Numbered from the stretch's first letter, positions 1-21,659 are shown. The stretch is DNA of 64,000 nt from an uncultured virus (IMG/VR IMGVR_UViG_3300033153_005459) (IMGVR_UViG_3300033153_005459), one strand, 5' to 3'. The notes: generated from the letters alone by a model not told the origin. Program-made: numbers and translations.

Positions 1-67
1 CTTTGTGACGTTTGAGAGTTTGTTGCTGTGACTGGGTTGTTGTCTTCTGTCGGATTGTCATGAAAGC

Positions 68-96
68 TTGACAGTGGGGGTGGTGTGTGGTATGGT
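68..96 (+). promoter_or_regulatory. sigma70/sigmaA-type promoter heading the small-ORF array; probably leaderless
   Basis: TTGACA (68-73), 17 nt spacer, TGn-extended TATGGT (91-96); ATG at 103 follows after 6 nt. Confidence 0.75.
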
Positions 97-102
97 TGGG
101 TC

Positions 103-132
103 ATGACTGACCAGTTTGGAGAGTTCGCATGA
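103..132 (+). CDS. 9-aa leader micro-ORF MTDQFGEFA
   Basis: Starts at the predicted TSS; ends GGAGAGTTCGCATGA, overlapping the next ATG at 129. Confidence 0.4.
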   Translation: MTDQFGEFA

Positions 133-290
133 GCAGTGTTGGTGATTGGCGGCAGCAGCAGTATGGGTTTAGTTGGGATACCGATGAATTCAGGTTGTAT
201 GTTGATTCTCGACATCAGGTGTGGAAGGTGGCAAATTTCGATGTTGGTGATGTGCGTCAAGTTGTGATGCCTTGGTGGGAGTGGGCATGA
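129..290 (+). CDS. NWE-tail array protein (ends WWEWA)
   Basis: Hand translation MSSVGDWRQQQYGFSW...MPWWEWA, 53 aa, below ORF-track cutoff. Confidence 0.75.
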   Translation: MSSVGDWRQQQYGFSWDTDEFRLYVDSRHQVWKVANFDVGDVRQVVMPWWEWA

Positions 291-315
291 AGGTTGGCGA
301 GACCAGAAGGGTGGA

Positions 316-501
316 GTGCTCACATGGTGGGATTTCCATGACGATTTCGAATGCACGTTGTCTGTTCTTGTTGACCCTGACCGTTGTCTTTCGTTCTACA
401 GCATGGACACTTTGGCGCTCGGGTCGTCTTGGTTCATAGTCGTTCCAGCCTTGACCCAAGAGCGTGTACAGTATGGGTTTTCGAATTGGGAGTGGGCATG
501 A
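316..501 (+). CDS. NWE-tail array protein (NWEWA); start uncertain
   Basis: ORF track; the junction ATG at 287 is in a different frame. Confidence 0.65.
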   Translation: MLTWWDFHDDFECTLSVLVDPDRCLSFYSMDTLALGSSWFIVVPALTQERVQYGFSNWEWA

Positions 502-695
502 GCGGCTCAGTGCAGATTCGTAACGAGTGGACGACTACCGATTTGTTGTCTGCACCGGCTGGGGCTATCCAATGGATCGAAGAGTGGGATGATGCTGGCC
601 CGTTCAGAGTGGTATTCAGTTGGCGGTATCGGCTCGGTTGGATAGCGTCGTTTCATGGTGAGTTGTGGAACTGTAACAATTGGGAGTGGGCATGA
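498..695 (+). CDS. NWE-tail array protein (NWEWA)
   Basis: ATGA overlap; MSGSVQIRNEW...CNNWEWA. Confidence 0.8.
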   Translation: MSGSVQIRNEWTTTDLLSAPAGAIQWIEEWDDAGPFRVVFSWRYRLGWIASFHGELWNCNNWEWA

Positions 696-855
696 AACAG
701 ATTCGTAGCGTGTGGACGATTCACACCCAACCCCACAGTTACCCCGGTCAGTTTTCGGCTATCTGGTTCGAAGAGTGGGATGATGCTGGCCCGTCGGTTG
801 GGTAGTTATGTGTCGTGGGCTGATATGGGATTGTCCGAACTGGGAGTGGGCATGA
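692..855 (+). pseudogene. Frameshifted paralog of 498-695
   Basis: Shares QIR..WT and EEWDDAGP; about 31 nt missing relative to 498-695, which puts GW...NWEWA out of frame. Confidence 0.7.
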
Positions 856-1067
856 GCGTCGAGTTGGTTTACTTGGAGTGGCGAAGTACGCTGATGTGGG
901 AAGAGCAGAGCAAGAGGAAGTATCATTCGCTGGTTTTGTATATGGAGAATTACCGCCGTGAGGCTTGGCATCTACCAAAGTTCGATGAGGGTGCCGATGA
1001 ATGGTGGGTGGGCAATGGCAAGAAGTCTGCCGTCTTGATGTCTTGTATGAATTGGGAGGCGACATAA
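852..1067 (+). CDS. NWE-tail array protein (NWEAT)
   Basis: ATGA overlap at 852. Confidence 0.8.
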   Translation: MSVELVYLEWRSTLMWEEQSKRKYHSLVLYMENYRREAWHLPKFDEGADEWWVGNGKKSAVLMSCMNWEAT

Positions 1068-1516
1068 TGGCTCTTGTAGAAATTAAGGTATCTGGCATCG
1101 TTCCAGGGTCCCAGGTTTACATAGCTGAGATGCCTCTTCAGCAGCAGCTTATCAACACGCAAGCAGCGGGTTCTTCTGTTTCTGTGTGGCATCAAATCGT
1201 TGCAGATGTTGAAGTGATTATCAGAGTGCGTAAAGCCGCTAGTTCTCCTGAGATGATGCCTTTTGAAATGTATGGTACTGTCTCTGCGAAGCACGGGCTT
1301 GATGCCACGGTTTGTCAGGTCCATGATGAAATGTTCGGTGGTGACATGATTACCTTGAAAGCAGCACATCCATCCAACTCTTACTTCTACGGATTCATGA
1401 CGCAAACGGTTGACGGGAAGAAGTACGAGATAGGGTTTCATAAGGACGGTGGGACGGTCATCGGTGGTGAAGGTAATTTCTGTGATAGAGGACCAATAAG
1501 TTGGGAGTGGACGTGA
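1067..1516 (+). CDS. Long array member (SWEWT) with a virion-protein-like N-terminal domain
   Basis: TAATG overlap; ADVEVIIRVRK...PF...GL resembles the C-terminus of 47519-49231. Confidence 0.75.
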   Translation: MALVEIKVSGIVPGSQVYIAEMPLQQQLINTQAAGSSVSVWHQIVADVEVIIRVRKAASSPEMMPFEMYGTVSAKHGLDATVCQVHDEMFGGDMITLKAAHPSNSYFYGFMTQTVDGKKYEIGFHKDGGTVIGGEGNFCDRGPISWEWT

Positions 1517-1539
1517 CCATATGGTGGGAGTGGGCATGA
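1513..1539 (+). CDS. 8-aa micro-ORF MTIWWEWA (almost tail only)
   Basis: GTGA overlap at start, GCATGA junction at end. Confidence 0.5.
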   Translation: MTIWWEWA

Positions 1540-1766
1540 ACGTCACCACGGTGCAACCTCCGAGCACGACGATCACAATTGAATACGTTATGGGGCATAT
1601 CGTTGTCTGCGAAACCGACGATGCGGGCAGCGAGTTTTACCTTTGGTTGATTGATTGGGATGACTATGATGTTTCGGTCATGATTGGCGACGGGGAGCAT
1701 TTGCAATGGCTTGTGCCGCATATGTCAACCGAGTTGCGGTTCTGGAATTGGGAAGCGACGTATTAG
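1536..1766 (+). CDS. NWE-tail array protein (NWEATY)
   Basis: ATGA overlap; tail motif. Confidence 0.8.
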   Translation: MNVTTVQPPSTTITIEYVMGHIVVCETDDAGSEFYLWLIDWDDYDVSVMIGDGEHLQWLVPHMSTELRFWNWEATY

Positions 1767-1767
1767 C

Positions 1768-1944
1768 ATGGATGGAATCGAGTTCATAGTTTCAGGAACG
1801 TTGTGTGAGTGGACCGAATCTGTCCTCTTTGGTGCTTCGATTCGCGAGTGGTATGTGTGGCAGCATGTTGATGAAACGTTGAGGGTAGCTAAACGTGGGG
1901 GGAGTCCACCCATTGATCTTCCCGCAAACTGGTGGACGTCATGA
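1768..1944 (+). CDS. NWE-tail array protein (NWWTS)
   Basis: ATG 1 nt after previous stop; tail variant. Confidence 0.75.
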   Translation: MDGIEFIVSGTLCEWTESVLFGASIREWYVWQHVDETLRVAKRGGSPPIDLPANWWTS

Positions 1945-2168
1945 CCGAGGTGATAGGTGTGGGGTGGATAGCGTATGAGGACATAGGTACACTCATCTAT
2001 CGAGAGTTCTGGCATCAGAAGAAGGTGTGGATCACGATTCGTGATACAAGCTGGGATATGTGCGGCCCGATTGGTCCTACCATTGGTGAACGTAAGCTAA
2101 ACTCTCAACCGATACAGGGGTATCCTCATATGAGGATGCTAGGCTTTCCGAACTGGGAGTGGGCATGA
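1941..2168 (+). CDS. NWE-tail array protein (NWEWA)
   Basis: ATGA overlap; tail motif. Confidence 0.8.
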   Translation: MTEVIGVGWIAYEDIGTLIYREFWHQKKVWITIRDTSWDMCGPIGPTIGERKLNSQPIQGYPHMRMLGFPNWEWA

Positions 2169-2368
2169 ACGGCGTCACCTATGAAGTGAATCAGAAGATT
2201 GATGAAGGATGGGGCTTTGATGAGCACCAATGCGTATTGACAGAAAGCAGTGAAATCGCTTGGTGGCATTTGGTGAAGCCTTGGGGCTGCTGTGGGGTTG
2301 TTGTTGCGAGGGCTGGCGCTTCGGGGCCGTTTGGCTGGCCGGTATTTAAGAATTGGGAAATAGCATGA
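2165..2368 (+). CDS. NWE-tail array protein (NWEIA)
   Basis: ATGA overlap; tail motif. Confidence 0.8.
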   Translation: MNGVTYEVNQKIDEGWGFDEHQCVLTESSEIAWWHLVKPWGCCGVVVARAGASGPFGWPVFKNWEIA

Positions 2369-2526
2369 TCGGGAATTGGATCGCTGGGCTTGACGAATAC
2401 GCTTTGTCGGAATCCGGGGAGCAATACTGGTATCATCTGGTTCGTCCAGTTAGGAGATGCGGCGTTTATGTAGTTGTGAACGTTGAACCTCCTGAGGTTG
2501 GGTTTCTGAATTGGGAGTTGGGATGA
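2365..2526 (+). CDS. NWE-tail array protein (NWELG), paralog of 2165-2368
   Basis: Hand translation; LSESGEQYWYHLVRP..CGV versus LTESSEIAWWHLVKP..CGV. Confidence 0.75.
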   Translation: MIGNWIAGLDEYALSESGEQYWYHLVRPVRRCGVYVVVNVEPPEVGFLNWELG

Positions 2527-2690
2527 GCGTCGAATACAGACATCCTGAGCATCGTGGTGTGGTAGCTTGTTTCGTTGAGGACGAAGACTACTATGTGACT
2601 TTGCCGCCGTGGGGTGGCTGGCAACTCTGGGGACCCGGTGGTTTCGATTACTCCAACATGTGGAAGAACTGGGAGTTTGGATACGCATGA
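2523..2690 (+). CDS. NWE-tail array protein (NWEFGYA)
   Basis: Hand translation MSVEYRHPEH...WQLWGPGG...KNWEFGYA. Confidence 0.75.
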   Translation: MSVEYRHPEHRGVVACFVEDEDYYVTLPPWGGWQLWGPGGFDYSNMWKNWEFGYA

Positions 2691-2950
2691 GTCTGCAAAT
2701 CACAACGAAACGCAAGCGACCCAAGATTGGTATATGGGAGAAACTAGAGATCGGGATTATACGTTGGCGCACCGGTTTGGTCATGATTCACATCTATGAC
2801 GACGACTATACTGGAGCACCTGTTGCGACCAAATACAGGGGTACAACTATCTCTGAAAGAGATCCACATTGGGTTGTGAGCAACCTAAACACGGCTATTC
2901 CTCTGGGTGAATCGAACCAGCGAGGCCCCGAGAATTGGGAGTGGGCATGA
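2687..2950 (+). CDS. NWE-tail array protein (NWEWA)
   Basis: ATGA overlap; tail motif. Confidence 0.8.
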   Translation: MSLQITTKRKRPKIGIWEKLEIGIIRWRTGLVMIHIYDDDYTGAPVATKYRGTTISERDPHWVVSNLNTAIPLGESNQRGPENWEWA

Positions 2951-3192
2951 AACCTAATCCTAGACAGTCTGCCCATCCGAACGTTTGGACAACGGCTTTC
3001 GAATATTCGGCAAGTACATATGTGCCTGCCAAATGGCAGTACGGCCAGTTTGTGATGCTGCTGTTTGATACGTTGGACACATATGTGATTCAGGATGGTT
3101 CTTCTGAGGTATTTCAATCCAGATGGAAAGTGATAAAGGAAGGCGCTTCGTGGAATGAAGCTGTTCACGTTTCGAACTGGGAATGGGCATGA
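2947..3192 (+). CDS. NWE-tail array protein (NWEWA)
   Basis: ATGA overlap; tail motif. Confidence 0.8.
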   Translation: MKPNPRQSAHPNVWTTAFEYSASTYVPAKWQYGQFVMLLFDTLDTYVIQDGSSEVFQSRWKVIKEGASWNEAVHVSNWEWA

Positions 3193-3398
3193 CCAAAATG
3201 AGCGACATAAACAACCCGTGGAAACGTGTTTGGGTCGTCAACCCCAACCAAGTTACGCTTTTGACTTGGCAAGAGCTTGACGGTGTGCTAAAGTTGTATT
3301 GGACTGGTGAATGGCAAATCTTCGGACCTGTTCCAACTAACGGCAGTTCGCTGCGTCCGGTGATGAAACCGCCATCCAATTGGGAGATCGCAACATGA
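3189..3398 (+). CDS. NWE-tail array protein (NWEIAT)
   Basis: ATGA overlap; tail motif. Confidence 0.8.
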   Translation: MTKMSDINNPWKRVWVVNPNQVTLLTWQELDGVLKLYWTGEWQIFGPVPTNGSSLRPVMKPPSNWEIAT

Positions 3399-3423
3399 GA
3401 ACGCAGAAGGTTAGACTCTGCCA

Positions 3424-3457
3424 GGGACCGCCAGAACGACAAATGTCTGGCGGTCCC
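3424..3457. repeat. Perfect 12-bp inverted repeat inside the array
   Basis: GGGACCGCCAGA-N10-TCTGGCGGTCCC; no U-tract. Confidence 0.8.
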
Positions 3458-3458
3458 G

Positions 3459-3653
3459 ATGTCTAAGAAACGTATGGACATGCCTGTCCGATTTACCGTT
3501 TTTGATAGGCAGGCTATTGGTTGGGTTCAGGAAGAACTGAAAACGATTGGGCCTTGGGGTGTTATGTACTACATGCGCAACCACGAAACACGAGTGCATG
3601 AGGTGGGCCATAGTGGTTGGCGTATCGCTCGCAACTGGGAAGTCGCATCATGA
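3459..3653 (+). CDS. NWE-tail array protein (NWEVAS)
   Basis: ORF track; tail motif. Confidence 0.75.
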   Translation: MSKKRMDMPVRFTVFDRQAIGWVQEELKTIGPWGVMYYMRNHETRVHEVGHSGWRIARNWEVAS

Positions 3654-3781
3654 CCGGTGCAGAGACTAGCAGAGCCAAGGCTCACGAATTGTTGAATTTG
3701 AGCACTGGCTGGTACGTGTACGATTGCGTCTTCGATGAAAACGGCCAGGTGTGGTACAAGACAGCGAGAAAGGATAACTAA
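3650..3781 (+). CDS. Small hypothetical protein within the array, lacking the tail
   Basis: ATGA overlap; MTGAETSRAKAHELLNL...ARKDN, 43 aa. Confidence 0.5.
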   Translation: MTGAETSRAKAHELLNLSTGWYVYDCVFDENGQVWYKTARKDN

Positions 3782-3783
3782 TC

Positions 3784-4020
3784 ATGACTGCATGGAAAGG
3801 GCACCGAACGTTGTATTGGGAGGACGGCTCTATCACGGGAATGCCTGGTCCAGTTTTTGTGGAAGCAGACGTTGAAGGCGAAGTGCAAGACGATGTGCTC
3901 ATAGAACTACACGAGACCAACGAAGCGTGGATTGTGACTCTGCCGGACTTGGTACCTTGGCTCATTACCCGTCTGGGTGATCACACGGTCAACGGGTTCT
4001 CTTGGTGGGAGTGGGCATGA
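3784..4020 (+). CDS. NWE-tail array protein (WWEWA)
   Basis: GAAAGGA RBS; tail motif. Confidence 0.8.
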   Translation: MTAWKGHRTLYWEDGSITGMPGPVFVEADVEGEVQDDVLIELHETNEAWIVTLPDLVPWLITRLGDHTVNGFSWWEWA

Positions 4021-4250
4021 GCGTAGGGAAAATGTCATTCATCTCGGAGATGCCTGACCGATGGTCTATCATGTCTGGCAAAACCGATCATTTTGTTTGG
4101 GACAAGGAAAGGTTCCGGCTGGTTATCACACCGGAATATCCGGTCATGACCATCTCTGATCACAGAGACAGAAAGGCTGGCGATGTGCTCGATTACGATT
4201 CGTTCATTGTGAAGAACTGGGAATGGGCATGTCGCATATGTGGGAAGTGA
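4017..4250 (+). CDS. Array protein with extended tail (NWEWA-CRICGK)
   Basis: Junction reads GCATGT instead of GCATGA. Confidence 0.75.
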   Translation: MSVGKMSFISEMPDRWSIMSGKTDHFVWDKERFRLVITPEYPVMTISDHRDRKAGDVLDYDSFIVKNWEWACRICGK

Positions 4251-4411
4251 ATCTTTTTGGAACCGCTTTGAGGTGGACTGAACCTGATCTCAGCGCTTCG
4301 GTTCTGGTCGGACACGATTGGTGGCAAATCTATGGACCCGTGTCGACACGTTCGGACATATTCCAACCACCTTATCCCGGTTTCACAAATTGGGAGTGGA
4401 TCTGTCGATAG
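4229..4411 (+). CDS. NWE-tail array protein (NWEWICR)
   Basis: Starts at the junction ATG; contains WQIYGP. Confidence 0.75.
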   Translation: MSHMWEVNLFGTALRWTEPDLSASVLVGHDWWQIYGPVSTRSDIFQPPYPGFTNWEWICR

Positions 4412-4418
4412 AGAAGGT

Positions 4419-4712
4419 GTGACCCATGATCCTGTTCCGAGAATCATTCAAGCATACAGAGGCGGCGCTGCTCTAGTTTCTTACTGTCCAGTTGGCGGGG
4501 GTCACAATCTCGTTGTTGACAAGATCACTGAAGACGGAGTAGACTGGTGTGTAGCAGCGTGTCTTGAATGCACGTATTATGAGAAGGGTAGATCGTTCGC
4601 TGAAGTTCTGATTGGTGCTGCGGCGAAGATCCTGAAGAATTGGGAATTTGGATGGCCGGAAGATGGGGAATTTCTAGAACCAGTTGGACGGGTGGACACG
4701 GCACGTATCTAG
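4419..4712 (+). CDS. Array protein, Cys-containing, with extended tail (NWEFG-W...)
   Basis: GTG start (uncertain); junction reads GGATGG. Confidence 0.65.
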   Translation: MTHDPVPRIIQAYRGGAALVSYCPVGGGHNLVVDKITEDGVDWCVAACLECTYYEKGRSFAEVLIGAAAKILKNWEFGWPEDGEFLEPVGRVDTARI

Positions 4713-4882
4713 TCTGGCAGGATACTGAGCCGTCGTGTAGCTTGACTCTCACGTGTGTGTCTGCTAATCTACATAAGGAGTATCCCGGCTATTTCGAAAT
4801 GTTGGATATGGACGAAGACGCTACTAGCCTAGTCATATGGGGCCGTGAGGCTGGCCATCGTAACTGGGAGTTTTGCTGGTGA
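4652..4882 (+). CDS. NWE-tail array protein (NWEFCW)
   Basis: Starts at the junction ATG 4652. Confidence 0.75.
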   Translation: MAGRWGISRTSWTGGHGTYLVWQDTEPSCSLTLTCVSANLHKEYPGYFEMLDMDEDATSLVIWGREAGHRNWEFCW

Positions 4883-5091
4883 CCGTTCTGCAAGTCGAGA
4901 TGGAAGGGTTCTTTTGCAGGTTCTCTGAGGCTGACGTTCAGGACGGGAAACCGATCGGTTGGTGCTTGAGGGCACGTCGTGGAATCAAACCAATGGGCGG
5001 CTTGACGCAGGCTTGGGGCAACACGATCGAGCGATTCACGCCAGACGACGACAATTGGTCGCCGGTGCCAAACGGATGGGAACCAACGTGA
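4879..5091 (+). CDS. NWE-tail array protein (GWEPT)
   Basis: GTGA overlap. Confidence 0.75.
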   Translation: MTVLQVEMEGFFCRFSEADVQDGKPIGWCLRARRGIKPMGGLTQAWGNTIERFTPDDDNWSPVPNGWEPT

Positions 5092-5273
5092 AACGGAAAC
5101 GCACGAAACGACTTCAAAAGATACATGAGTCACAGCCGTTGACGATGTGGCGTGACGACACAGCCGCTCTATGTATGATTTATGGCTATGAGGACCTGTC
5201 CGGTTCGACAGTAATCGTTCACAACAACTACGGAATGGTGTTTTGCATAGGCAACAACTGGGAGCCAGCATGA
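5088..5273 (+). CDS. NWE-tail array protein (NWEPA)
   Basis: GTGA overlap. Confidence 0.75.
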   Translation: MKRKRTKRLQKIHESQPLTMWRDDTAALCMIYGYEDLSGSTVIVHNNYGMVFCIGNNWEPA

Positions 5274-5482
5274 TTGAATTTGCTGCGAAGGCGAGATGGC
5301 AGCGTTGGCATGAAATCGAGGGCGATTGCTATATCGTGTCGTTCTGGGATGATCCCACACTCGATTATCTTCAAGGCGAAGTGCATAAGCGATATGTTCA
5401 TGGCACCTACGTCGCTCAAGGACTTTCGGTAATAAAACCACCAGCCGATCTCGTGTGGTTCATGAACTGGGAAGCGACATGA
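5270..5482 (+). CDS. NWE-tail array protein (NWEAT)
   Basis: ATGA overlap. Confidence 0.8.
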   Translation: MIEFAAKARWQRWHEIEGDCYIVSFWDDPTLDYLQGEVHKRYVHGTYVAQGLSVIKPPADLVWFMNWEAT

Positions 5483-5709
5483 ATCCAGAATTTGAAAAGC
5501 TGTGCAACAACAATGCTATCACTTTCACCATCACGAAATCGCGTATCGTGTTTTGCGAATACTTTTTCCAAGGCGACTCCGGTTGGGGAGCAAACGAACC
5601 GAGACGTATTCGTTTGGATCTGTCGTTGGACGATAGCAACATCTGCGTGTACACCCGGTACATTTCGATTCCTCATTCGATGCCTGCTAATTGGGAAGGA
5701 GCGATATGA
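5479..5709 (+). CDS. NWE-tail array protein (NWEGAI)
   Basis: ATGA overlap. Confidence 0.8.
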   Translation: MNPEFEKLCNNNAITFTITKSRIVFCEYFFQGDSGWGANEPRRIRLDLSLDDSNICVYTRYISIPHSMPANWEGAI

Positions 5710-5942
5710 GCGTACAATTCGTTTATGCTCACTCTCTCACTCCCCATACACACCAACACATTCCGGGTGGTGTTCGTAGAAGAGGTGCTTATCATGGTTG
5801 GACTGACCGTGAAGGTTGGCATCTCTTCTACTACCCAGCAAGAAAGTCAGGGCCTCCGATGTTTTTTGATGGACCTGTATGGGAGTTCGCTTCGCCTGCA
5901 TTCGTTGAGTCGATTGAATTGTTGAATTGGGAAACAGCATGA
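5706..5942 (+). CDS. NWE-tail array protein (NWETA)
   Basis: ATGA overlap. Confidence 0.8.
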   Translation: MSVQFVYAHSLTPHTHQHIPGGVRRRGAYHGWTDREGWHLFYYPARKSGPPMFFDGPVWEFASPAFVESIELLNWETA

Positions 5943-6112
5943 ATTGGAGCTACAACTTCAACAACGGGCACATTTGGTGTAACGAGTTAGACTCTGAGGA
6001 ACGAGAATTCGAATTGGAGCACAACTTCAACACGGGCAGAACCACAACCTTTCAATGGCCAGACAAATCCAATGGGGTCATCTACCTCGCCAACAACTGG
6101 TCGCCGACATGA
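5939..6112 (+). CDS. NWE-tail array protein (NWSPT)
   Basis: ATGA overlap; tail variant. Confidence 0.75.
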   Translation: MNWSYNFNNGHIWCNELDSEEREFELEHNFNTGRTTTFQWPDKSNGVIYLANNWSPT

Positions 6113-6315
6113 TCAAATACGTCAACTCGATATATTCAACCCAATGGTTAGAATCACCGCCACGTTACACCAGTCGAGAACGCGAGTGGAAACTCATTCA
6201 AGAATACAGGGTTTACTCAATGAAACATCTTCGCCACCACAATCATCTCTTTGTCTATTCCGATCACGACGGGTTTAGTTCTGACGTTCCACGCAACTGG
6301 GAGATCGCATCATGA
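6109..6315 (+). CDS. NWE-tail array protein (NWEIAS)
   Basis: ATGA overlap. Confidence 0.8.
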   Translation: MIKYVNSIYSTQWLESPPRYTSREREWKLIQEYRVYSMKHLRHHNHLFVYSDHDGFSSDVPRNWEIAS

Positions 6316-6479
6316 TCTCTTGGACCTACGGCATTGACCACATTCACATTACAGAACCGCAAGGCCGCGGCTTCTGGCTTTTCGACAAAGGCTTTTACCG
6401 CGGCGTGCCTCACATGCTCGATGATTCACCCGGCAACGAGTTGTATCTTTTTTTCAATAACTGGGAAACAGCACGATGA
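6312..6479 (+). CDS. NWE-tail array protein (NWETAR)
   Basis: Hand translation MISWTYGIDHIH...FFNNWETAR. Confidence 0.75.
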   Translation: MISWTYGIDHIHITEPQGRGFWLFDKGFYRGVPHMLDDSPGNELYLFFNNWETAR

Positions 6480-6652
6480 AGCAAAATCTTGGAGAAGACT
6501 GGTACCAGTGGTGCGAGGAAAACTACACTGTTCATTACATTTGGGGTCCTTGGAAGTACGTCGTCGGCAGGCTCTACGTCGTTGGACCACCAGGACCACC
6601 AAGACCAAATGCTGGTGGTCGCGACCTACCCTGTAATTGGGAAGCAGCATGA
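6476..6652 (+). CDS. NWE-tail array protein (NWEAA)
   Basis: Hand translation MKQNLGEDWYQW...LPCNWEAA. Confidence 0.75.
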   Translation: MKQNLGEDWYQWCEENYTVHYIWGPWKYVVGRLYVVGPPGPPRPNAGGRDLPCNWEAA

Positions 6653-6852
6653 TCCAAGTAATCAGACACAGCGCAGTAACCGACACACACCATTGGACAG
6701 AGAACAACGACACCGGTCAAGTCTGGAAACTTTGGGCAGGCCCACGCTGGTTTTCCTGCGACGATGACGAACTGAAGGAGACCCGAGTAACAGTTCACGG
6801 CGAAGGTCACGGATGCAGAATCTATCTCCCTCTCACATGGGAAGTAACATGA
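6649..6852 (+). CDS. NWE-tail array protein (TWEVT)
   Basis: ATGA overlap. Confidence 0.75.
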   Translation: MIQVIRHSAVTDTHHWTENNDTGQVWKLWAGPRWFSCDDDELKETRVTVHGEGHGCRIYLPLTWEVT

Positions 6853-7070
6853 ATTCCTTTCTCACCAGCTTCCCTTGGTACGTGACTCTCCACGAAGAAA
6901 CAAAACTGGCATACGACACCGACCCAAGCTCACACAACTGGACTATCAGAATGATGAACCTTTATCCGCACGCCCTTTCTATCCGACACGTAGAGTACAC
7001 AACTTCACAACGAGACGGCAAGTCAGGATTCAGCGGCTTGCCTTGTAGCTGGGAAGCAGCGTACTTATGA
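6849..7070 (+). CDS. NWE-tail array protein (SWEAAYL)
   Basis: ATGA overlap. Confidence 0.75.
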   Translation: MNSFLTSFPWYVTLHEETKLAYDTDPSSHNWTIRMMNLYPHALSIRHVEYTTSQRDGKSGFSGLPCSWEAAYL

Positions 7071-7303
7071 TCGAATGCAAATCAGCAGACACATGGATGT
7101 CAGTATACGGAGAACCAGGCGACACGTACACCATCGTCTACCTCCATCAGCCCGAACTCTACGGCCTGTTCATGATAGCTCGGGGATGGCCCCCTCTACT
7201 CTGGCGACAACGCAACAGAAGACACACCAACGGCTACGTCCACACCCACACACCTCTAGGCAGATGGCACCTACCAACCGGATGGGAACCAGCAACAGCG
7301 TGA
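7067..7303 (+). CDS. NWE-tail array protein (GWEPATA)
   Basis: ATGA overlap. Confidence 0.75.
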   Translation: MIECKSADTWMSVYGEPGDTYTIVYLHQPELYGLFMIARGWPPLLWRQRNRRHTNGYVHTHTPLGRWHLPTGWEPATA

Positions 7304-7470
7304 CTTGCAAACTCGACTACAACCGCAAAGTCCACAGCCTCTTCTTCCTTGACATCGAAGACAATATCACGTATGCTCTAGAATACCGTTTCAGATACAC
7401 TACACGTTGGATCATCCGGGGACGCTACGGATCAGTGATGGCCCACGTAAAGAACTGGGAACTCGCATGA
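7300..7470 (+). CDS. NWE-tail array protein (NWELA)
   Basis: GTGA overlap. Confidence 0.75.
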   Translation: MTCKLDYNRKVHSLFFLDIEDNITYALEYRFRYTTRWIIRGRYGSVMAHVKNWELA

Positions 7471-7610
7471 GACAAGACCACACCACCGAAGCCTACTACT
7501 TCAGACAGGACGCTATCGTGGTCGCCGTCCCCTACAACCGCAGAACCACACGCCTACTAATCAACTACCCATACAAGATGCCCCTCAACTGGGAACTAGC
7601 CACACCATGA
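7467..7610 (+). CDS. NWE-tail array protein (NWELATP)
   Basis: ATGA overlap. Confidence 0.75.
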   Translation: MRQDHTTEAYYFRQDAIVVAVPYNRRTTRLLINYPYKMPLNWELATP

Positions 7611-7798
7611 ACGCAGACACCGTAGAAGAAGACTACTCATACCGCTGGGTCAGATGGAGCCACGCCTACGGCAGCGTAGCACTCGTAGCCATATGGCGAT
7701 GCGACGACTACTTCCCACACGGCAGAGTAGGCGTAAGGATCACCGAAGGCATCAACGCATCCGAAGCATGGTTCAACAACTGGGAACCAGCAACATGA
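7607..7798 (+). CDS. NWE-tail array protein (NWEPAT)
   Basis: ATGA overlap. Confidence 0.8.
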   Translation: MNADTVEEDYSYRWVRWSHAYGSVALVAIWRCDDYFPHGRVGVRITEGINASEAWFNNWEPAT

Positions 7799-7995
7799 TA
7801 GACGAAGGAAACGTAGGAGTAGACTACTCACGCCACTGGATACGATGGCGTTACGCATCAGGTCTAGTAGCACTCATAGCACTATGGTACGCCGACGACG
7901 ACTACTTCACCGTTCCCGTTCAGCTAGGCGTAAGCATCACCAATGGCCACGAAGACGTATACCTCACCAACTGGGAACCCGCATACACATGCTAG
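7795..7995 (+). CDS. NWE-tail array protein (NWEPAYTC), paralog of 7607-7798
   Basis: Shared DYS..W.RW..A.G.VAL.A.W..DDYF...GV.IT.G. Confidence 0.8.
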   Translation: MIDEGNVGVDYSRHWIRWRYASGLVALIALWYADDDYFTVPVQLGVSITNGHEDVYLTNWEPAYTC

Positions 7996-8165
7996 AATAC
8001 AGAGGCTTCGCATTCCAAGAACACGACCTATCAGAAGAAACCCCCACCGCAATCATATTCCTATGGCTACCTTCTTGGTCATCAACCAAAGAGCGATGCC
8101 CCTGGATCAACGGCGACAGAGCAGGCGAACCGCTACGGTTACGCAACTGGGAACCAGCATGGTAA
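7989..8165 (+). CDS. NWE-tail array protein (NWEPAW)
   Basis: ATG 7989; junction reads GCATGG. Confidence 0.75.
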   Translation: MLEYRGFAFQEHDLSEETPTAIIFLWLPSWSSTKERCPWINGDRAGEPLRLRNWEPAW

Positions 8166-8217
8166 ACCCTCAATGCCCCCCTGCTAGTTATACAAAATTA
8201 TTTGAAAGGAGCTACTG

Positions 8218-8460
8218 ATGGTGTTAACGTGGGGGACTCACTTGACGGCCGGTTACTTTCGTGCGTTCACGACTAATGAGCGAACACTGACGATGACTCA
8301 TGCAGAGACGGTGGCTGCACTGAAGAGGTATCCCTTTGCGTTGTCTTGGTATCAGGAGGTTGATGGGGAGGATGAGGGCGTGTATACTTTGAATTCGTTT
8401 CATCATGACGGCGACCATTGGGATCATCGTGAGATCGCACGGAATTGGATGTTGGCATGA
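8218..8460 (+). CDS. NWE-tail array protein (NWMLA)
   Basis: GAAAGGAG RBS; tail variant. Confidence 0.8.
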   Translation: MVLTWGTHLTAGYFRAFTTNERTLTMTHAETVAALKRYPFALSWYQEVDGEDEGVYTLNSFHHDGDHWDHREIARNWMLA

Positions 8461-8672
8461 ACTGGGATGATGCGCCTGAGACAATGAAGTGGACTTTGAA
8501 CTTCTCCTACGTTCCGTGGGATCGTCATATCTACATTTACGAACGCACCGAGTCTGCCTCATGGGATTTGATTTACTTCATGCGTCGTCAGTCTTGGGTT
8601 ATTCAGAGCGCCATCGACAAGTCGAATCAGATTGGTGAATATCAGCTTCCGAAGAATTGGGCACCTGCATGA
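8457..8672 (+). CDS. NWE-tail array protein (NWAPA)
   Basis: ATGA overlap at both ends. Confidence 0.8.
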   Translation: MNWDDAPETMKWTLNFSYVPWDRHIYIYERTESASWDLIYFMRRQSWVIQSAIDKSNQIGEYQLPKNWAPA

Positions 8673-9514
8673 ACAAGATCCGTGACCTGATAGATCGCAG
8701 ACCGACGCTCTCGTTTGAGTTCTTTCCACCGAAGACAGCCAAGGCTGTGGTGACTCTACGGGAGACTGTGGATCTTCTTGAGAACGCCGACCCTGATTTC
8801 GTGTCGGTCACCTACGGTGCCGGTGGTAGCACACGTGACGCCACCCGAGACACGGTGGTCGAATTCATCGAGGACCGAGACTTCCCAACGATGCCGCATC
8901 TTACTTGTGTCGGGCACAGCTACACTGAGGTCAAGGATCTGATCGACTACTACCAGGCCCACGGTGTGTGCAACATACTTGCGCTGGCTGGCGATGCACC
9001 CGACGACTATCATCCCGACCCCACCGACTTCCGTTACGCTATCGAACTCGTGGAGATGTTACAGTACCAATCCGATCTGTGTGTTGGTGTTGCCGCGTTT
9101 CCTGAGGTTCACCCTCGTTCCGAGAGTCGAGAGTCTGACCGGAGGCATCTTGCCGACAAGCTACGGATGGCTGATTTCGGCATCACGCAATTCTTCTTCG
9201 ACTGTGACGACTACTTCCGTATGGTCGATGAATTGCAGGCACTCGGCTGCGACACACCTATTCTTGCTGGTGTCATGCCTGTTGTCAACCCGATCGGTGT
9301 TCGACGTTTCGCTGAGATGAACGGGTCAGCGGTCGATGAAGCTCTATGGAATCGTATTGACGCAGCCAACCCTGACGAACGACTTCAAATAGCGGTCGAC
9401 ACGGCGGTCCATCAAATCTCCCGTCTCATCGACGGCGGCGCTCCCGGCGTGCATCTCTACACTCTCAATCAGTCCGCTGCGTCGATTCGGATATGTGAGC
9501 AGATACCCAGATGA
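8669..9514 (+). CDS. metF: 5,10-methylenetetrahydrofolate reductase (auxiliary metabolic gene)
   Basis: SFEFFPPKT, DFVSVTYGAGGS, HLTC, ILALAGD, FPEVHP, ITQFFFD, GVHLYTLN motifs. Confidence 0.95.
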   Translation: MNKIRDLIDRRPTLSFEFFPPKTAKAVVTLRETVDLLENADPDFVSVTYGAGGSTRDATRDTVVEFIEDRDFPTMPHLTCVGHSYTEVKDLIDYYQAHGVCNILALAGDAPDDYHPDPTDFRYAIELVEMLQYQSDLCVGVAAFPEVHPRSESRESDRRHLADKLRMADFGITQFFFDCDDYFRMVDELQALGCDTPILAGVMPVVNPIGVRRFAEMNGSAVDEALWNRIDAANPDERLQIAVDTAVHQISRLIDGGAPGVHLYTLNQSAASIRICEQIPR

Positions 9515-9723
9515 CCGTGAGACGCTCTGTAAGCCGCTCTGTTGAGCGCAGACGCTTAAGACGCCTAGCGACACGTGTAGCTGCCAAAGATGGCCTCAGC
9601 CCCGGTATAACGCCGCTTCCTTACCATGTGGACTATTGGGAAGCGAACATTGTCCGAGACGCTCTGACGCGACATTTAAACTGGGAAACAGTCAGGCGGT
9701 TAGACGCTCAACAGCGTCCTTGA
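9511..9723 (+). CDS. Small basic protein with NWET near its C-terminus
   Basis: ATGA overlap with metF. Confidence 0.55.
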   Translation: MTVRRSVSRSVERRRLRRLATRVAAKDGLSPGITPLPYHVDYWEANIVRDALTRHLNWETVRRLDAQQRP

Positions 9724-10354
9724 CCCCAGCCCAGTCGGTACGGATGATCCGTGACCACAATATGGCGGGATCGCCAGCACCTTCCATCGCTTTTGTCCAC
9801 GCGTCGGCATGAACGATAGGATCGTTCCACGGGCGAGAGTGACATACAGCGGGACGACCAGTACGAGCGAAGTCCACAACATTCTCGATACGATCTTCAA
9901 TACAGATATCGAGATCCAGCGATAGTTTGTACTCGTGGCCGAATCGTAGAGTCACAAGAGGCACAGCATACATGCTGAGCCAGCCCATCTTCTGAAGAGC
10001 GCAGTCGTGGAACGTTGAATCGCCGTAGCCCGATCCCCAAGGGTTCGTTACGACATGAATCTCGTTTCCTGCAAGATGTAGGGCGTCTACACCCTCCAGC
10101 GAACCCTCGATCACGTCCATTCCTAGCCAAACACCCTCGTCGGTAGCCGTCCTGACCGCCTTATCGAACTGTTTGAAGTCCAACTTCCAGTCTTCGCGGT
10201 ACATTGACCAGCAGGTTGACGGGTGTGTGGCGATATGTTCGACGTGTTCTTTGGAGAGTTCTAGTCGTTTTTCTCCATTTGCGACGATCCAGTCCTGCAT
10301 TCCACTGGCGAAATGTGTCAAAACCCCGTCCATATCTAACAAAATCTTGCTCAT
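9692..10354 (-). CDS. HAD-family 5'(3')-deoxyribonucleotidase (NT5C-like)
   Basis: N-terminal ILLDMDGVL, plus HVVT, K..WL, IEDR, RPWN. Confidence 0.8.
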   Translation of the reverse strand: MSKILLDMDGVLTHFASGMQDWIVANGEKRLELSKEHVEHIATHPSTCWSMYREDWKLDFKQFDKAVRTATDEGVWLGMDVIEGSLEGVDALHLAGNEIHVVTNPWGSGYGDSTFHDCALQKMGWLSMYAVPLVTLRFGHEYKLSLDLDICIEDRIENVVDFARTGRPAVCHSRPWNDPIVHADAWTKAMEGAGDPAILWSRIIRTDWAGVKDAVERLTA

Positions 10355-10376
10355 ATTAGCTCCAAATAGCTCTGGT

Positions 10377-10628
10377 TTAGCTTGTTTTTGTGGCTTTTAG
10401 CTCTAAAGCAACTTGAATTAGCTCACGTCCAACCTGTTCTGCGACCTCTGGAGTCATCAAAATGTTCGTTTTGCCCCTCTGGGAGCGTGTCGGAAGCTGA
10501 ATTACGAGCTGAATTTGGTCGCCACGGACTGCTTGAGTCGGTTCTGGCGACCGCCAGGCATCAATTCTGATGTCAGTTTGTGTATCGTCCTCGTCTAGGG
10601 TTCTCCAGCGGGGGCGATTGCGATCCAT
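10377..10628 (-). CDS. Hypothetical protein
   Basis: Co-oriented with neighbours in a minus-strand operon. Confidence 0.6.
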   Translation of the reverse strand: MDRNRPRWRTLDEDDTQTDIRIDAWRSPEPTQAVRGDQIQLVIQLPTRSQRGKTNILMTPEVAEQVGRELIQVALELKATKTS

Positions 10629-10653
10629 GTGACCACGTTAGCAGGTATTCGCG

Positions 10654-10878
10654 TCACCAATCTGGCGCAACTACGGAATTTCCTAGTTCCCAGTTCCGAA
10701 ACAGCTTGCTGGAGTCGACCATCACGGAACGATCTTCGAAATGCACCACTCCCCACCATGCGTTGTTAGGGTTTTGGTTCCAGAACATCCTAACCCCGTA
10801 TTCAAACGCTCCGAGGGTGACGATGCGGGCTGGACCACGGTTTTCGAACCATGCGAACAGCGGATACTCTTCCGTCAT
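10654..10878 (-). CDS. Dispersed NWE-tail protein (NWELG plus extension)
   Basis: ATGA overlap with 10875-11048. Confidence 0.7.
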   Translation of the reverse strand: MTEEYPLFAWFENRGPARIVTLGAFEYGVRMFWNQNPNNAWWGVVHFEDRSVMVDSSKLFRNWELGNSVVAPDW

Positions 10879-11048
10879 AGAGCTACTTCCCAATTACGCC
10901 ACGTAAGGAAGCGTGCTTCACCTTTGTCGTTGATTAAACCCGGTCTACGATTGCCATTATCTGCAATTTCGAACTTGAAGTCGTCTTCTGTCCATTCTAC
11001 GATACAGCCTCCAAGCAAAAGATGATCAATGTAGAAATTTACGGTCAT
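10875..11048 (-). CDS. Dispersed NWE-tail protein (NWEVAL)
   Basis: Hand translation MTVNFYIDHLLLGGCIVEW...TWRNWEVAL, 57 aa. Confidence 0.75.
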   Translation of the reverse strand: MTVNFYIDHLLLGGCIVEWTEDDFKFEIADNGNRRPGLINDKGEARFLTWRNWEVAL

Positions 11049-11054
11049 CTCAGT

Positions 11055-11083
11055 AGTTTACATGCAATCAATCAGTTTGTCAA
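11055..11083 (-). promoter_or_regulatory. Leaderless sigmaA-type promoter
   Basis: Minus strand TTGACA-N17-TAAACT-N6-ATG (11048). Confidence 0.75.
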
Positions 11084-11085
11084 CC

Positions 11086-11114
11086 TTGCCGACTGAGGTT
11101 TTATGTGGTACGCT
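11086..11114 (+). promoter_or_regulatory. Divergent sigmaA-type promoter
   Basis: TTGCCG-N17-TACGCT with TGn extension. Confidence 0.5.
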
Positions 11115-11144
11115 GAGTTATCGTTGGATCTTCCTTCCTTCGTC

Positions 11145-11351
11145 ATGCCTCGAAAGTATCACAACATGATTCTGAACCGAACCGCAAGTGGAAGATACGC
11201 TTTGAATCTCTTTGAACACTGGAACAAGGACGGTGATGAGTTCGTGGCTGAATTGTGCGTCTGGCCCAATGGAAGGATGTTGCTTTCCCGACCTGATGAT
11301 TTCTGGGATGCAACGCCGACTTTCATCCCTCCTAATTGGGAACCGATCTGA
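11145..11351 (+). CDS. Dispersed NWE-tail protein (NWEPI); start uncertain
   Basis: ORF track; tail motif. Confidence 0.7.
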   Translation: MPRKYHNMILNRTASGRYALNLFEHWNKDGDEFVAELCVWPNGRMLLSRPDDFWDATPTFIPPNWEPI

Positions 11352-11364
11352 TACACTAGACGGA

Positions 11365-11598
11365 ATGGGACGAAGAAAGAAGACCGACGCCGAGAAGAAC
11401 AAGACAGCAAAGGCTATTGATGCCAAGTTTGTTGGTGGCCCCAAGGACGGCACGACGTTGCAGATTATAAATCCTCCACCGGAGCATATTCGGCTGGTTG
11501 CGGGCGTGAAAGATTGGTGTACCTACGAGTGGGACACTAATCTTAGACTGTACCGTCATATCGGGGACGTGAGAATCAAGGAACTACATGAAACGTAA
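11365..11598 (+). CDS. Hypothetical phage protein
   Basis: FVGGPKDG motif typical of small phage proteins. Confidence 0.65.
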   Translation: MGRRKKTDAEKNKTAKAIDAKFVGGPKDGTTLQIINPPPEHIRLVAGVKDWCTYEWDTNLRLYRHIGDVRIKELHET

Positions 11599-12067
11599 AT
11601 GGCGGTGGCCGTTTCTGGTTGAACCGTACTATTACGTCTCTCCGCCATACACATACACCTACGCTCCAACGTTTGACCCCAAACCGCGTCCTGAACCGTG
11701 GCGCAAACACGAACTAGCAAAACGACAAGCGATTTACCTGTTGCCTGTGTCGTTCTGTGAGCTGCTTGCTGATGATCAGCAAGTCCACAACAACCGCAAG
11801 AAAACACCCAACAAGATAGCATGGTTACGGGAGTCCATTTCGGAAGAAGGCTTGAAACGGCCGTGTATTTTGGTCCTAGACTCCGTTGGCAACCTTCGTT
11901 ACCATGATGGGTACCATCGACTAACAGCGATTCAACAAATCGAAGATTTCACTCACATTCCGTGCATCCTGCAACACTCCACCGGCAGGATTCGTTCCTA
12001 TGGTCGACCCTTGCATCAAATCACCGAAATTATACTGGAGTTGGTATCTGCCGATAATAAGGCATGA
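11588..12067 (+). CDS. ParB/sulfiredoxin-like domain protein
   Basis: LRESISEEGLKRP...DGYHRLTA. Confidence 0.75.
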   Translation: MKRKWRWPFLVEPYYYVSPPYTYTYAPTFDPKPRPEPWRKHELAKRQAIYLLPVSFCELLADDQQVHNNRKKTPNKIAWLRESISEEGLKRPCILVLDSVGNLRYHDGYHRLTAIQQIEDFTHIPCILQHSTGRIRSYGRPLHQITEIILELVSADNKA

Positions 12068-12600
12068 AGCACCGCCTGTCTCCTGTCCTTGCAAGGGCAA
12101 TCAATCTTGAACAGTACGAAACTGTTCAGCTTGACGGAGACCTAGAGTTTTATGTGGCAGACTCTGTAGAGCATCGAAAAAGCGGGCTTGCGGGCCTAGC
12201 TGCATTGGACAAGGCGGGCATGATCTTCGTGTATGACGTGGACGTAAACCACGCTTTCACGATGTCAGCAATGGAGTTCGACCTCAATGTCGCTTTCTAC
12301 GACGCTGAGGGCACCTTGATCGTCACCAAGACCTGCATGGCGGGTTCTGGGGCTGTTCATGCTCCGAGGCCGTACAGGTACGTTGTGGAGGTTCCTACAG
12401 GGAACAGTCTTCCTTCTGATGTAAGCGCTTTGAAGAAGAAGAAGAAGAAGAAGAAGTCAGCTTACGCTCAAGAACTTGCGGTACACTACCATCAGGATCT
12501 AACCCATGATGGCATTCTGATTCATTCTCACGAAGTAGAAGTCCCTGATCACACACATCCAGGGTTTGGTGCAGGATACTTGGCTAAGGAGAGCATGTGA
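12064..12600 (+). CDS. DUF192-family protein with a poly-Lys tract
   Basis: VAD...R..GL...GMIFVY...M..M.FDL.VAFYD..G...YVVEV. Confidence 0.75.
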   Translation: MKHRLSPVLARAINLEQYETVQLDGDLEFYVADSVEHRKSGLAGLAALDKAGMIFVYDVDVNHAFTMSAMEFDLNVAFYDAEGTLIVTKTCMAGSGAVHAPRPYRYVVEVPTGNSLPSDVSALKKKKKKKKSAYAQELAVHYHQDLTHDGILIHSHEVEVPDHTHPGFGAGYLAKESM

Positions 12601-12645
12601 GTTCCTGCCTCATGTGATACCCGGAATGGGGTACAATGAAGAAGG

Positions 12646-12864
12646 ATGAGCGGAACGAGCAAGTATGACGATTACGACTTAGTGGGCTACGACCTGACGA
12701 TGATGTCAGAGTTGGCTAAAGAAGCCGGAATCAATGAAGGACTTGCGTTCTCTGAAGGTTATGTGGTAAGATTCTATTTCGTTAATCCTGAGGTGATGAG
12801 TGCCGGTCAACCGGTCCACGTTAAGGAATTGGTGAGACTCCCAGGATACTGGGAGTATACTTGA
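12646..12864 (+). CDS. Dispersed tail-variant protein (YWEYT)
   Basis: ORF track; ends TACTGGGAGTATACTTGA. Confidence 0.65.
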   Translation: MSGTSKYDDYDLVGYDLTMMSELAKEAGINEGLAFSEGYVVRFYFVNPEVMSAGQPVHVKELVRLPGYWEYT

Positions 12865-13037
12865 CACAGAAGGTGATTATTTCGATCTACTTCAATTTGG
12901 TTGAAACTTTTAGTTTGCAGCGACACACTGGAAGACCCCCCGGACGGATGCTTCTACGCATAGAACATCCTCAAACAGACGGGAAACGGAAAGTGTAGCA
13001 AAGCGCAAACGTTGATGATAGTGTAATTCATAGATTA

Positions 13038-13076
13038 GAAGAAGCCCTTACATCTTGTAGGGGTTTCTTCGCGTTT
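13038..13076 (+). terminator. Intrinsic terminator-like hairpin
   Basis: GAAGAAGCCCTTACA-TCT-TGTAGGGGTTTCTTC. Confidence 0.65.
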
Positions 13077-13080
13077 GGAG

Positions 13081-13110
13081 TTGACAAGCTTCATTGACGT
13101 GTGCTATGCT
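13081..13110 (+). promoter_or_regulatory. sigmaA-type promoter, near-identical to 21624-21653
   Basis: TTGACA-N18-TATGCT; GTG start at 13118. Confidence 0.75.
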
Positions 13111-13117
13111 GAGGTCC

Positions 13118-13333
13118 GTGGCCTATTTGCATGACAAGACGTATCATCTAGAGCAGCTAAGTCACGTGAACGCTACGATGGATCGTCTAGAAGCATCCCG
13201 TTACGCTCACGTTCGACAAGCACGTCTTGGCGGAGCCACTTGGCAGGAGATTGCTGATCAGCTTGGCATTACGCGTCAGGCTGCACATATACGATGGTCT
13301 AAAAGGATAAATGATGGCTCGCGAATTAACTGA
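13118..13333 (+). CDS. Small HTH DNA-binding protein
   Basis: ARLGGATWQEIADQLGITRQAAHIRW. Confidence 0.8.
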   Translation: MAYLHDKTYHLEQLSHVNATMDRLEASRYAHVRQARLGGATWQEIADQLGITRQAAHIRWSKRINDGSRIN

Positions 13334-13661: not shown

Positions 13662-13897
13662 TGCGTTTGCCTGAGCGTCGTTGTACGCACGCTTACGGCA
13701 TGATCTACGAAGATGACTTCTGTGTCTGTAAGCACTGTGAACAGTCGTGGACGATGATGAAAGGCTGGAAACCGATCGTGAATGGTCGCATCTACGATCC
13801 AGAGTTCAAGCCGAAGAAAAGCTCATACAGGGTCAAACCAGCAAACGTCAAAGCAAAGGGAAGCGTGCGCAAGATCCAAAGGCGTAGACGAGCATGA
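13661..13897 (+). CDS. Hypothetical Cys-containing basic protein
   Basis: TAATG overlap; CxH...CxxC. Confidence 0.6.
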   Translation: MRLPERRCTHAYGMIYEDDFCVCKHCEQSWTMMKGWKPIVNGRIYDPEFKPKKSSYRVKPANVKAKGSVRKIQRRRRA

Positions 13898-14345: not shown

Positions 14346-14348
14346 CCG

Positions 14349-21653: not shown

Positions 21654-21659
21654 CTTCAT

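Follow-up and report, generated by a model that had tools for sequence, protein, structure and literature searches.

A dual-coded array of small genes with a common C-terminal tail, predicted in an uncultured sediment phage

The 64-kb stretch of DNA analysed here in full (the window) comes from one uncultured sediment phage (IMG/VR IMGVR_UViG_3300033153_005459) and carries at positions 129-8672 a single plus-strand chain of 45 open reading frames (ORFs, numbered g01 to g45), which runs on into a methylenetetrahydrofolate reductase (MTHFR) gene. A tryptophan-centred C-terminal tail with the core N-W-E was found in 41 of the 45 ORFs, and the DNA at the junction between successive genes is dual-coded: N-W-E is mainly selected as a peptide, and the codon GAG, the spacer length and the sequence GCATGA are mainly selected as RNA. 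The anatomy of the array was read from sequence alone. We give a probability of roughly one half to the following reading: the chain is a real polycistronic early operon of a tailed phage, encoding at least 45 small, acidic, Trp-rich and lineage-specific proteins in which the tail is the only feature conserved throughout the family, and it operates by the mechanism set out next.

In the proposed mechanism, the chain would be transcribed from a promoter at 68-96, a leaderless 9-codon ORF (ATG at 103) would prime it, and ribosomes would be passed on along it by termination-reinitiation. Unequal recombination between the junction repeats would make the array grow and shrink, and the protein bodies would then drift or diversify fast. 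The tail would serve as a body-independent handle, that is, a short linear motif through which all members receive a common treatment, be it removal at a set time or docking on a single partner from host or phage. The handle is the weakest of these steps. A bolder version, which we put forward tentatively and hold to be clearly less probable than the operon itself, is that N-W-E is a portable address label on about 47 fast-evolving early proteins, by which one partner recruits, delivers or destroys them all, and that the DNA of the label also acts as the coupling joint by which the library expands cassette by cassette.

The array and its shared tail

Forty of the 45 ORFs encode at least 40 amino acids (range 43-149, median 67.5), and the remaining five have 8-37 codons. 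Four-base stop/start overlaps, 29 of them ATGA and 4 GTGA, connect 33 of the 45 junctions, and two more junctions show one-base overlaps. The sequence-only reading of this DNA had described a co-oriented array of about 41 tailed genes, chained by ATGA/GTGA overlaps behind a single consensus promoter, and each element of that description held: 41 tails were counted on the one plus-strand chain, the overlaps were as given above, and the promoter is a sigma70-like, TG-extended TTGACA-17-TATGGT at 68-96 (plus strand, 10 of 12 matches). Seventeen promoter-like sites were detected in 15 kb, compared with 14.2 expected, and for the array only the site at 68-96 was convincing. Internal terminators were not above chance (11 terminator-like sites, 11.4 expected), and folding of the RNA at the 45 junctions gave a mean z of -0.02, versus 0.19 mid-gene, with no stem-loop.

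Strong sigma70-like promoters lie between genes at four places in the window (68-105, 11083-11046 on the minus strand, 13081-13120 and 21624-21662), and in all four an ATG or GTG follows the -10 hexamer by 7-8 nt; early transcripts may therefore be leaderless. Thirteen promoter sites reach at least 10 of 12 matches, six of them with this geometry, and the other seven are inside genes. The array has its own leader mini-ORF of nine codons (103-132, plus strand), whose ATG lies 7 nt past the -10 hexamer and whose TGA overlaps the ATG of g01.

W-E is present in 37 of the 41 tails and is preceded by N in 33, and the tail tryptophan codon is TGG in all 41. Among stop-to-stop ORFs of at least 25 amino acids in the whole 64 kb, W-E followed by 1-6 terminal residues ends 40 on the plus strand, 33 of which fall in 1-8200, and two on the minus strand. 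In plus-strand ORFs of 40-160 amino acids, WE (37) and NW (34) were the dipeptides seen most often among the last eight residues, the next highest reaching 30. The tail peptide can be summarised as [hydrophobic]-[P/F]-x-N-W-E-[hydrophobic or P]-[A/T], with P at position -3 in 13 of 41 tails and F in 10. Two residues follow E in 24 tails, three in 9, four in 5 and more in 3, and the last residue itself varies widely (A, T, S, P, C, Y, L, R, I, W, G or K).

The data thus show the variable-body, constant-tail family that had been proposed, and the tail is selected as a peptide. Four details of the proposal changed. Four ORFs (g04, g18, g20 and g43) are tailless; two tailed ORFs, g05 and g08, are remnants; the tail is internal in g22 (by 7 residues) and g24 (by 18 residues); and the family is not confined to 129-8672, since the window holds six or seven further members, including two minus-strand ones.

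Tail type shifts along the array, NWEWA and GAG dominating the first 5 kb and NWEPA and GAA the rest, and midway along it (about 5000-6000) the GC skew passes from +0.29..+0.14 to -0.14. This change could reflect two sub-arrays of different age.

Peptide selection and ribosome signal in the junction

The junction has the consensus AAY TGG GAR NNN RCA TGA (15-18 bases). Within it, the tail DNA contains a Shine-Dalgarno (SD)-like GGGAR, and the ATGA stop/start overlap belongs to the same junction. The W-E codons themselves serve the following cistron as its SD-like element, and the tail is therefore constant in part through an RNA-level constraint, notably in GAG and GCATGA; this role of the W-E codons had been missed in the earlier reading. 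The remaining phage genes have ordinary AGGAG, GGAGG or GAGGT sites in any frame, which indicates that the host reads SD sequences and makes a mere translated ribosome site the obvious rival account of N-W-E. According to this account, which we regard as unlikely, the tail is a translated coupling signal (GGGAG, spacer and ATGA) spread by tandem duplication, and the peptide has no function. Several observations fit it well. TGGGAG is SD-like, and GAG junctions pair with the anti-SD at -7.6 kcal/mol, close to the median of -7.2 for other phage genes. The next start lies 5 nt beyond the E codon in 25 tails, 8 nt beyond it in another 8 and 11 nt beyond it in 5 (38 of 41), and the number of residues between W-E and the C-terminus is as variable as an SD spacer would be. 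In g22 and g24 the upstream stop has been lost and the next ATG has not moved. The leader mini-ORF has the same GGAGAG-N5-GCATGA. Finally, a single non-coding ribosome site, AACTGGGAGG at 42167-42185 (the first nine junction bases plus G), precedes the start, at 42183, of a gene for a 1052-residue minor tail protein.

As the sole cause of the tail, however, the ribosome-site account fails. GAA is the E codon in 20 of 37 tails and GAG in 17, and GAA junctions pair at only -4.2 kcal/mol, near the median of -3.2 for random positions; a majority of the W-E tails consequently make poor SDs but have kept W-E. The N codon is AAC in 18 tails and AAT in 15, never AAR, and the E codon is never GAY, which means that both wobble sites have drifted, solely synonymously (33:0 and 37:0). 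N, and the P or F at position -3 (17-20 nt before the next start), lie outside any SD. Tails also occur at the operon end and where no start is near: the gene at 14076-14345 ends in NWEAAY three bases before a convergent gene, the one at 11103-11351 ends in NWEPI with the next ATG 22 nt on, and the minus-strand gene at 10654-10878 has NWE ten residues from its end with no start nearby. N-W survives in four tails that lack GGGA (NWWTS, NWSPT, NWMLA and NWAPA). Members without an upstream tail have other, mostly ordinary AAGGAG-type sites (GAAAGGA, GAAAGGAG, GAGG, AAAGG), the leader mini-ORF retains its GGAGAG-N5-GCATGA without N-W, and the SDs of the other phage genes, as noted, fall in any frame.

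Bodies, growth and competing explanations

With tails removed, Smith-Waterman comparison of the bodies gave Z>4 in 8 of 780 pairs, versus 2 of 780 after shuffling (mean 0.19 and -0.06), and iterative hidden Markov model searches from nine seeds joined only g40 with g41 and g12 with g13, without decoys. The bodies were thus as unalignable as had been reported, and they were also as rich in aromatic residues: compared with large genes, W makes up 4.9% versus 1.4%, Y 4.9% versus 2.4%, H 3.7% versus 1.8% and A 4.8% versus 10.1%, and 31 of 40 proteins are net acidic. Searching for frame-shifted DNA homology between cassettes, blastn yielded only g03-g04 and g40-g41. At the level of single pairs, homology between bodies is clear for g40-g41, g12-g13, g03-g04, g17-g23 and g28-g40. 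The youngest intact duplicate pair has a nonsynonymous divergence (dN) of 0.43 and a synonymous divergence (dS) of 0.53, with dN/dS about 0.8 over 52 codons; in older pairs synonymous sites are saturated. Structure prediction, which had been suggested for all members, was carried out with AlphaFold2 for two, g40 with an alignment of paralogs (mean pLDDT 55.6) and g07 alone (45.7), and the confidence was too low to interpret beyond 'beta-rich' at most.

Two duplications are visible in the array, g03/g04 and g40/g41, both adjacent, bounded by junctions and with a 191-nt period. The first copy, now split into g04 and g05, matches g03 over 31 nt at 97% identity and carries a 31-nt deletion; g40 and g41 are 71% identical over 127 nt. 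The repeats at the junctions measure 17-32 nt and reach as many as 10 copies, g05 and g08 are mini-ORFs that consist of scarcely more than a junction, and 12 of the 40 pairs of neighbours have the same variable tail residue, more than chance would give (p 0.006 by permutation). The junction-bounded duplicates, the junction-only remnants and the position-clustered tail variants fit the earlier suggestion that the junction is a recombination site, and they suggest unequal recombination between junctions as the simplest way in which the array may have grown.

Among the remaining explanations, all members could share a single small, beta-rich fold from which they have diverged to the extreme; N-W-E-hydrophobic would then be its last strand, with a buried Trp, conserved for folding, and no common partner would exist. 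The alternation of polar and hydrophobic residues in N-W-E-hydrophobic-A suits a beta-strand, body similarities exist between non-adjacent members (g17-g23, Z 6.1; g28-g40, Z 5.6; g01-g22, Z 4.4), the low-confidence model of g40 is three-stranded, and the sizes are similar around the median. However, no common Trp register relative to the tail was found (p 0.73), a profile built from 37 members retrieves just 3 of them at E <=0.001, the tail is attached to bodies ranging from 43 to 149 amino acids and is followed by 2-5 residues after E (8 and 21 in the read-through genes), and both low-confidence models place it in coil. We judge a shared fold about as improbable as the bare ribosome site. 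Less likely still is a capture of cassettes, in the manner of integrons or promoter-early stem-loop (PeSL) elements, by which unrelated genes were gathered between junction repeats and the tail is an acquired scar. The bodies are indeed near-random to each other at both protein and DNA level, the repeats and mini-ORFs described above would suit such a process, and g07 differs in size and character; yet one and the same odd composition is common to all bodies, there are paralogs among non-adjacent members in several cases, no body homologue that could be a source was present elsewhere in the libraries searched, and there is no integrase, no stem-loop and no promoter per cassette. Hardly any weight is given to the notion that the ORFs are not genes at all, being frames left open by chance in G+T-rich sequence or products of faulty assembly. 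The ORFs are known from sequence only, the first 6 kb has a strong GC skew, and spurious long ORFs occur on the opposite strand; against this, 36 of 40 ORFs scored best in their own frame when the codon model was derived from 22 large window genes, 33 of 45 junctions are precise overlaps, and stop density in the array is normal, with no purge of stop codons across all frames. Moreover, two independent sediment metagenome runs from two studies contain low-depth, near-identical pieces (at least 99% identity except for one X2 piece), in which joints and indels were looked for and none were seen.

We rank the body-independent handle first, because the tail is the sole family-wide feature, sits on bodies of very different length and tolerates small C-terminal extensions; the last strand of a diverged fold comes next, and then the pure by-product of a ribosome site. 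Several points count against the main reading as a whole. In 17 of the 37 W-E tails the codons form a good SD, and there peptide and RNA constraints are inseparable; the variable number of residues after E suits the spacing tolerance of an SD better than a tag recognised at its free C-terminus; and identical junctions could have arisen through gene conversion instead of selection. The dN/dS of the bodies, near 1, could mean weak function instead of diversification, and the structure models (mean pLDDT 55.6 and 45.7) are uninformative. No relative was found in the libraries searched, so that selection is judged within one genome, and no gene for a protease, adaptor or PDZ-type protein was found in the window, which encodes no partner candidate.

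Phage early regions are the main reservoir of small proteins of unknown function, many of which disable host functions or defences. Should one peptide mark about 47 proteins in a single genome, it would be an experimental handle with which one pull-down could reveal the common partner, and the tail motif would make members of the class recognisable without body homology. The junction provides a clean example of dual coding in nature, where peptide and ribosome signals occupy the same bases and in silico comparison (GAA versus GAG, with or without a downstream start) can tell their constraints apart in part, and it offers a simple mechanism by which a gene array might amplify itself. On the evidence of the sequence, we take the dual-coded array of end-tagged mini-genes to be real and its self-amplification to be probable.

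Genomic setting and comparison with known systems

All genes of the chain are on the plus strand. It opens with g01 (129-290, 53 aa, WWEWA) and g02 (316-501, 61 aa, NWEWA), which starts with GTG at 316. In the region 287-501, the canonical overlapped ATG at 287 opens a tailless frame of 50 codons and the tailed frame is available only from the GTG, so that a one-base frameshift or an alternative start is possible. There follow g03 (498-695, 65 aa, NWEWA), its shortened recent copy g04 (692-805, 37 aa, tailless) and the remainder of that copy, g05 (808-855, a 15-codon remnant ending in NWEWA); then g06 (852-1067, 71 aa, NWEAT), g07 (1067-1516, 149 aa, SWEWT), which is all-beta in low-confidence models, and the 8-codon, junction-only g08 (1513-1539, WWEWA). 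The next genes are g09 (1536-1766, 76 aa, NWEATY), g10 (1768-1944, 58 aa, NWWTS), g11 (1941-2168, 75 aa, NWEWA), g12 (2165-2368, 67 aa, NWEIA) and its paralog g13 (2365-2526, 53 aa, NWELG), g14 (2523-2690, 55 aa, NWEFGYA), g15 (2687-2950, 87 aa, NWEWA), g16 (2947-3192, 81 aa, NWEWA), g17 (3189-3398, 69 aa, NWEIAT), the tailless g18 (3395-3466, 23 aa), g19 (3459-3653, 64 aa, NWEVAS), the tailless g20 (3650-3781, 43 aa) and g21 (3784-4020, 78 aa, WWEWA), whose own ribosome site is GAAAGGA.

The two genes with an internal tail are g22 (4017-4250, 77 aa, NWEWA and then 7 residues; stop lost, next ATG kept) and g24 (4419-4712, about 97 aa, NWEFG and then 18 residues), with g23 (4229-4411, 60 aa, NWEWICR) between them. 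The start of g24 is uncertain: the ATG at 4426, with a good ribosome site, opens just 16 codons, and the long frame begins with GTG and has almost no spacer. The Cys/His pattern of its protein suggests a small metal site. The chain continues with g25 (4652-4882, 76 aa, NWEFCW), g26 (4879-5091, 70 aa, GWEPT), g27 (5088-5273, 61 aa, NWEPA), g28 (5270-5482, 70 aa, NWEAT), g29 (5479-5709, 76 aa, NWEGAI), g30 (5706-5942, 78 aa, NWETA), g31 (5939-6112, 57 aa, NWSPT), g32 (6109-6315, 68 aa, NWEIAS), g33 (6312-6479, 55 aa, NWETAR), g34 (6476-6652, 58 aa, NWEAA), g35 (6649-6852, 67 aa, TWEVT), g36 (6849-7070, 73 aa, SWEAAYL), g37 (7067-7303, 78 aa, GWEPATA), g38 (7300-7470, 56 aa, NWELA), g39 (7467-7610, 47 aa, NWELATP), g40 (7607-7798, 63 aa, NWEPAT), its tandem duplicate g41 (7795-7995, 66 aa, NWEPAYTC), g42 (7989-8165, 58 aa, NWEPAW), the tailless g43 (8159-8218, 19 aa), g44 (8218-8460, 80 aa, NWMLA), which has its own ribosome site GAAAGGAG, and g45 (8457-8672, 71 aa, NWAPA), whose stop overlaps the start of the last cistron, the MTHFR gene (8669-9514, plus strand; PF02219, 8.6e-76).

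Six members outside the array can be placed in the window. On the minus strand are 10875-11048 (57 aa, NWEVAL), with its own promoter in leaderless geometry, and 10654-10878 (74 aa, NWELG and then 8 residues), with no start codon near the motif. On the plus strand are 11103-11351 (82 aa, NWEPI; next ATG 22 nt after the E codon), 13894-14079 (61 aa, NWIVAA), 14076-14345 (89 aa, NWEAAY), the last plus-strand gene before the convergent exonuclease gene, and 24698-24889 (63 aa, NWEWM), which lies between two glycosyltransferase genes and encodes a protein related to g15.

The window is part of a tailed phage, and among its genes are those for a terminase (33186-34820), a B12-type ribonucleotide reductase, the tape measure and minor tail proteins. 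Caudovirales GX15bay, which comes from mangrove soil, is its nearest phage in GenBank, the terminases being 48.6% identical. Beside the array, 8669-18706 holds the MTHFR gene and genes for an NT5C-type 5'-nucleotidase, a dCMP deaminase and the B12-dependent ribonucleotide reductase, a set that hints at an altered supply of pyrimidines or folate. A second block, at 23959-31283 just 5' of the packaging genes, contains four or five glycosyltransferases, a sulfotransferase, two methyltransferases and an RmlD-like reductase fused to a methyltransferase-like region, and the annotation of GX15bay shows a similar glycosyltransferase block. Within a DUF192-domain gene (12064-12600), an (AAG)8 run at 12433-12456 encodes eight lysines; no such run appeared in 100 shuffles.

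Searches for known families and relatives returned the array itself at most. None of 40 proteins passed the Pfam cut-off, none of 40 matched PHROGs at E <=0.05, and none of 46 matched NCBIfam. Against 5.8 billion clusters, the 37-member profile had one match among 22 candidates, the window's own g40; against 1.84 billion representatives it had three, all its own (g45, g40 and g12); and g07 alone found only itself. PDB sequences gave nothing below E 0.06, and the ESM Atlas, queried with g41 and g07, gave only unnamed or low-share clusters and low-TM neighbours, which are leads at best.

The motif and profile search envisaged in the sequence-only reading was run on protein libraries, IMG/VR and contigs and revealed no relative array. 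The junction 18-mer had no match in IMG/VR, and two-junction patterns with three gap ranges matched 4, 7 and 6 loci there, none of them an array. Metagenome contigs gave at least 120 loci, and among the matches listed the highest motif count, 6, belonged to unrelated repeats; genome contigs gave 98 loci, none of which had more than 3 motifs. With the proteins beside the array (MTHFR and exonuclease) as anchors, no related viral loci came to light. Terminase relatives are all about 50% identical; one of them (G002, 77 kb, 68% GC) lacks junction motifs and shows no enrichment of any tail dipeptide, an array of this kind is absent from GX15bay, and tblastn of 47 family proteins against the terminase relatives gave chance-level matches (E 0.005 or worse). 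The coverage of the nearest record (G001, 25 kb) excludes window positions 1-12000 and hence the array. In the full-text literature outside subscription journals and supplements, no phage array sharing a C-terminal tag was found, in line with the earlier reading, to which no described case was known.

Among known motifs, the tail recalls the WW domain, a domain of about 35 residues that opens with L-P-x-G-W-E: tails in the distal half of the array read [L/M]-P-x-[N/G]-W-E. In the array proteins, however, the motif stands at the end, whereas it opens the WW domain, and the likeness is one of appearance only. The WW model in Pfam was matched by none of 40 proteins, and the profile match to a WW domain in PDB was non-significant (E 0.69).

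Shared terminal peptides are familiar from other systems: the internal proteins of T4 carry an N-terminal capsid-targeting sequence, and C-terminal degrons of the ssrA type are read by ClpXP or Tsp. As in these cases, a short terminal peptide is attached to otherwise unrelated array proteins, many of which end in a hydrophobic residue plus Ala. Unlike them, the tag of the array is C-terminal, occurs on early genes and has its N-W-E core 2-5 residues from a variable end. An ssrA-like or tail-specific degron is disfavoured, since the last residues vary and 2-21 residues follow E.

The closest evolutionary analogue is the PeSL cassettes of T4-type hyperplastic regions, though their defining promoter and stem-loop are absent here. 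These cassettes are intergenic promoter-plus-terminator units (Arbiol et al., 2010, PMC2839356; Comeau et al., 2014, PMC4122927). In both systems a short repeat flanks many small, non-essential ORFan genes, and recombination between copies is proposed as the route of gain, loss and shuffling (for PeSL cassettes, PMC2839356). The array differs in having neither intergenic DNA nor a stem-loop, one promoter for the entire chain, and a repeat with coding sequence to either side.

As a mechanism, ordinary translational coupling comes closest. Stop/start overlaps of the ATGA or TAATG kind, with an SD inside the upstream gene, couple cistron pairs of the trp operon and genes in many phage operons, and the array resembles them in its 33 four-base overlaps at 45 junctions and in its SD-like GGGAR 5-11 nt upstream, within the preceding coding sequence. 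It departs from usual coupling in repeating one junction about 40 times, in having half of these junctions as poor SDs, and in translating the junction as a peptide-selected motif.

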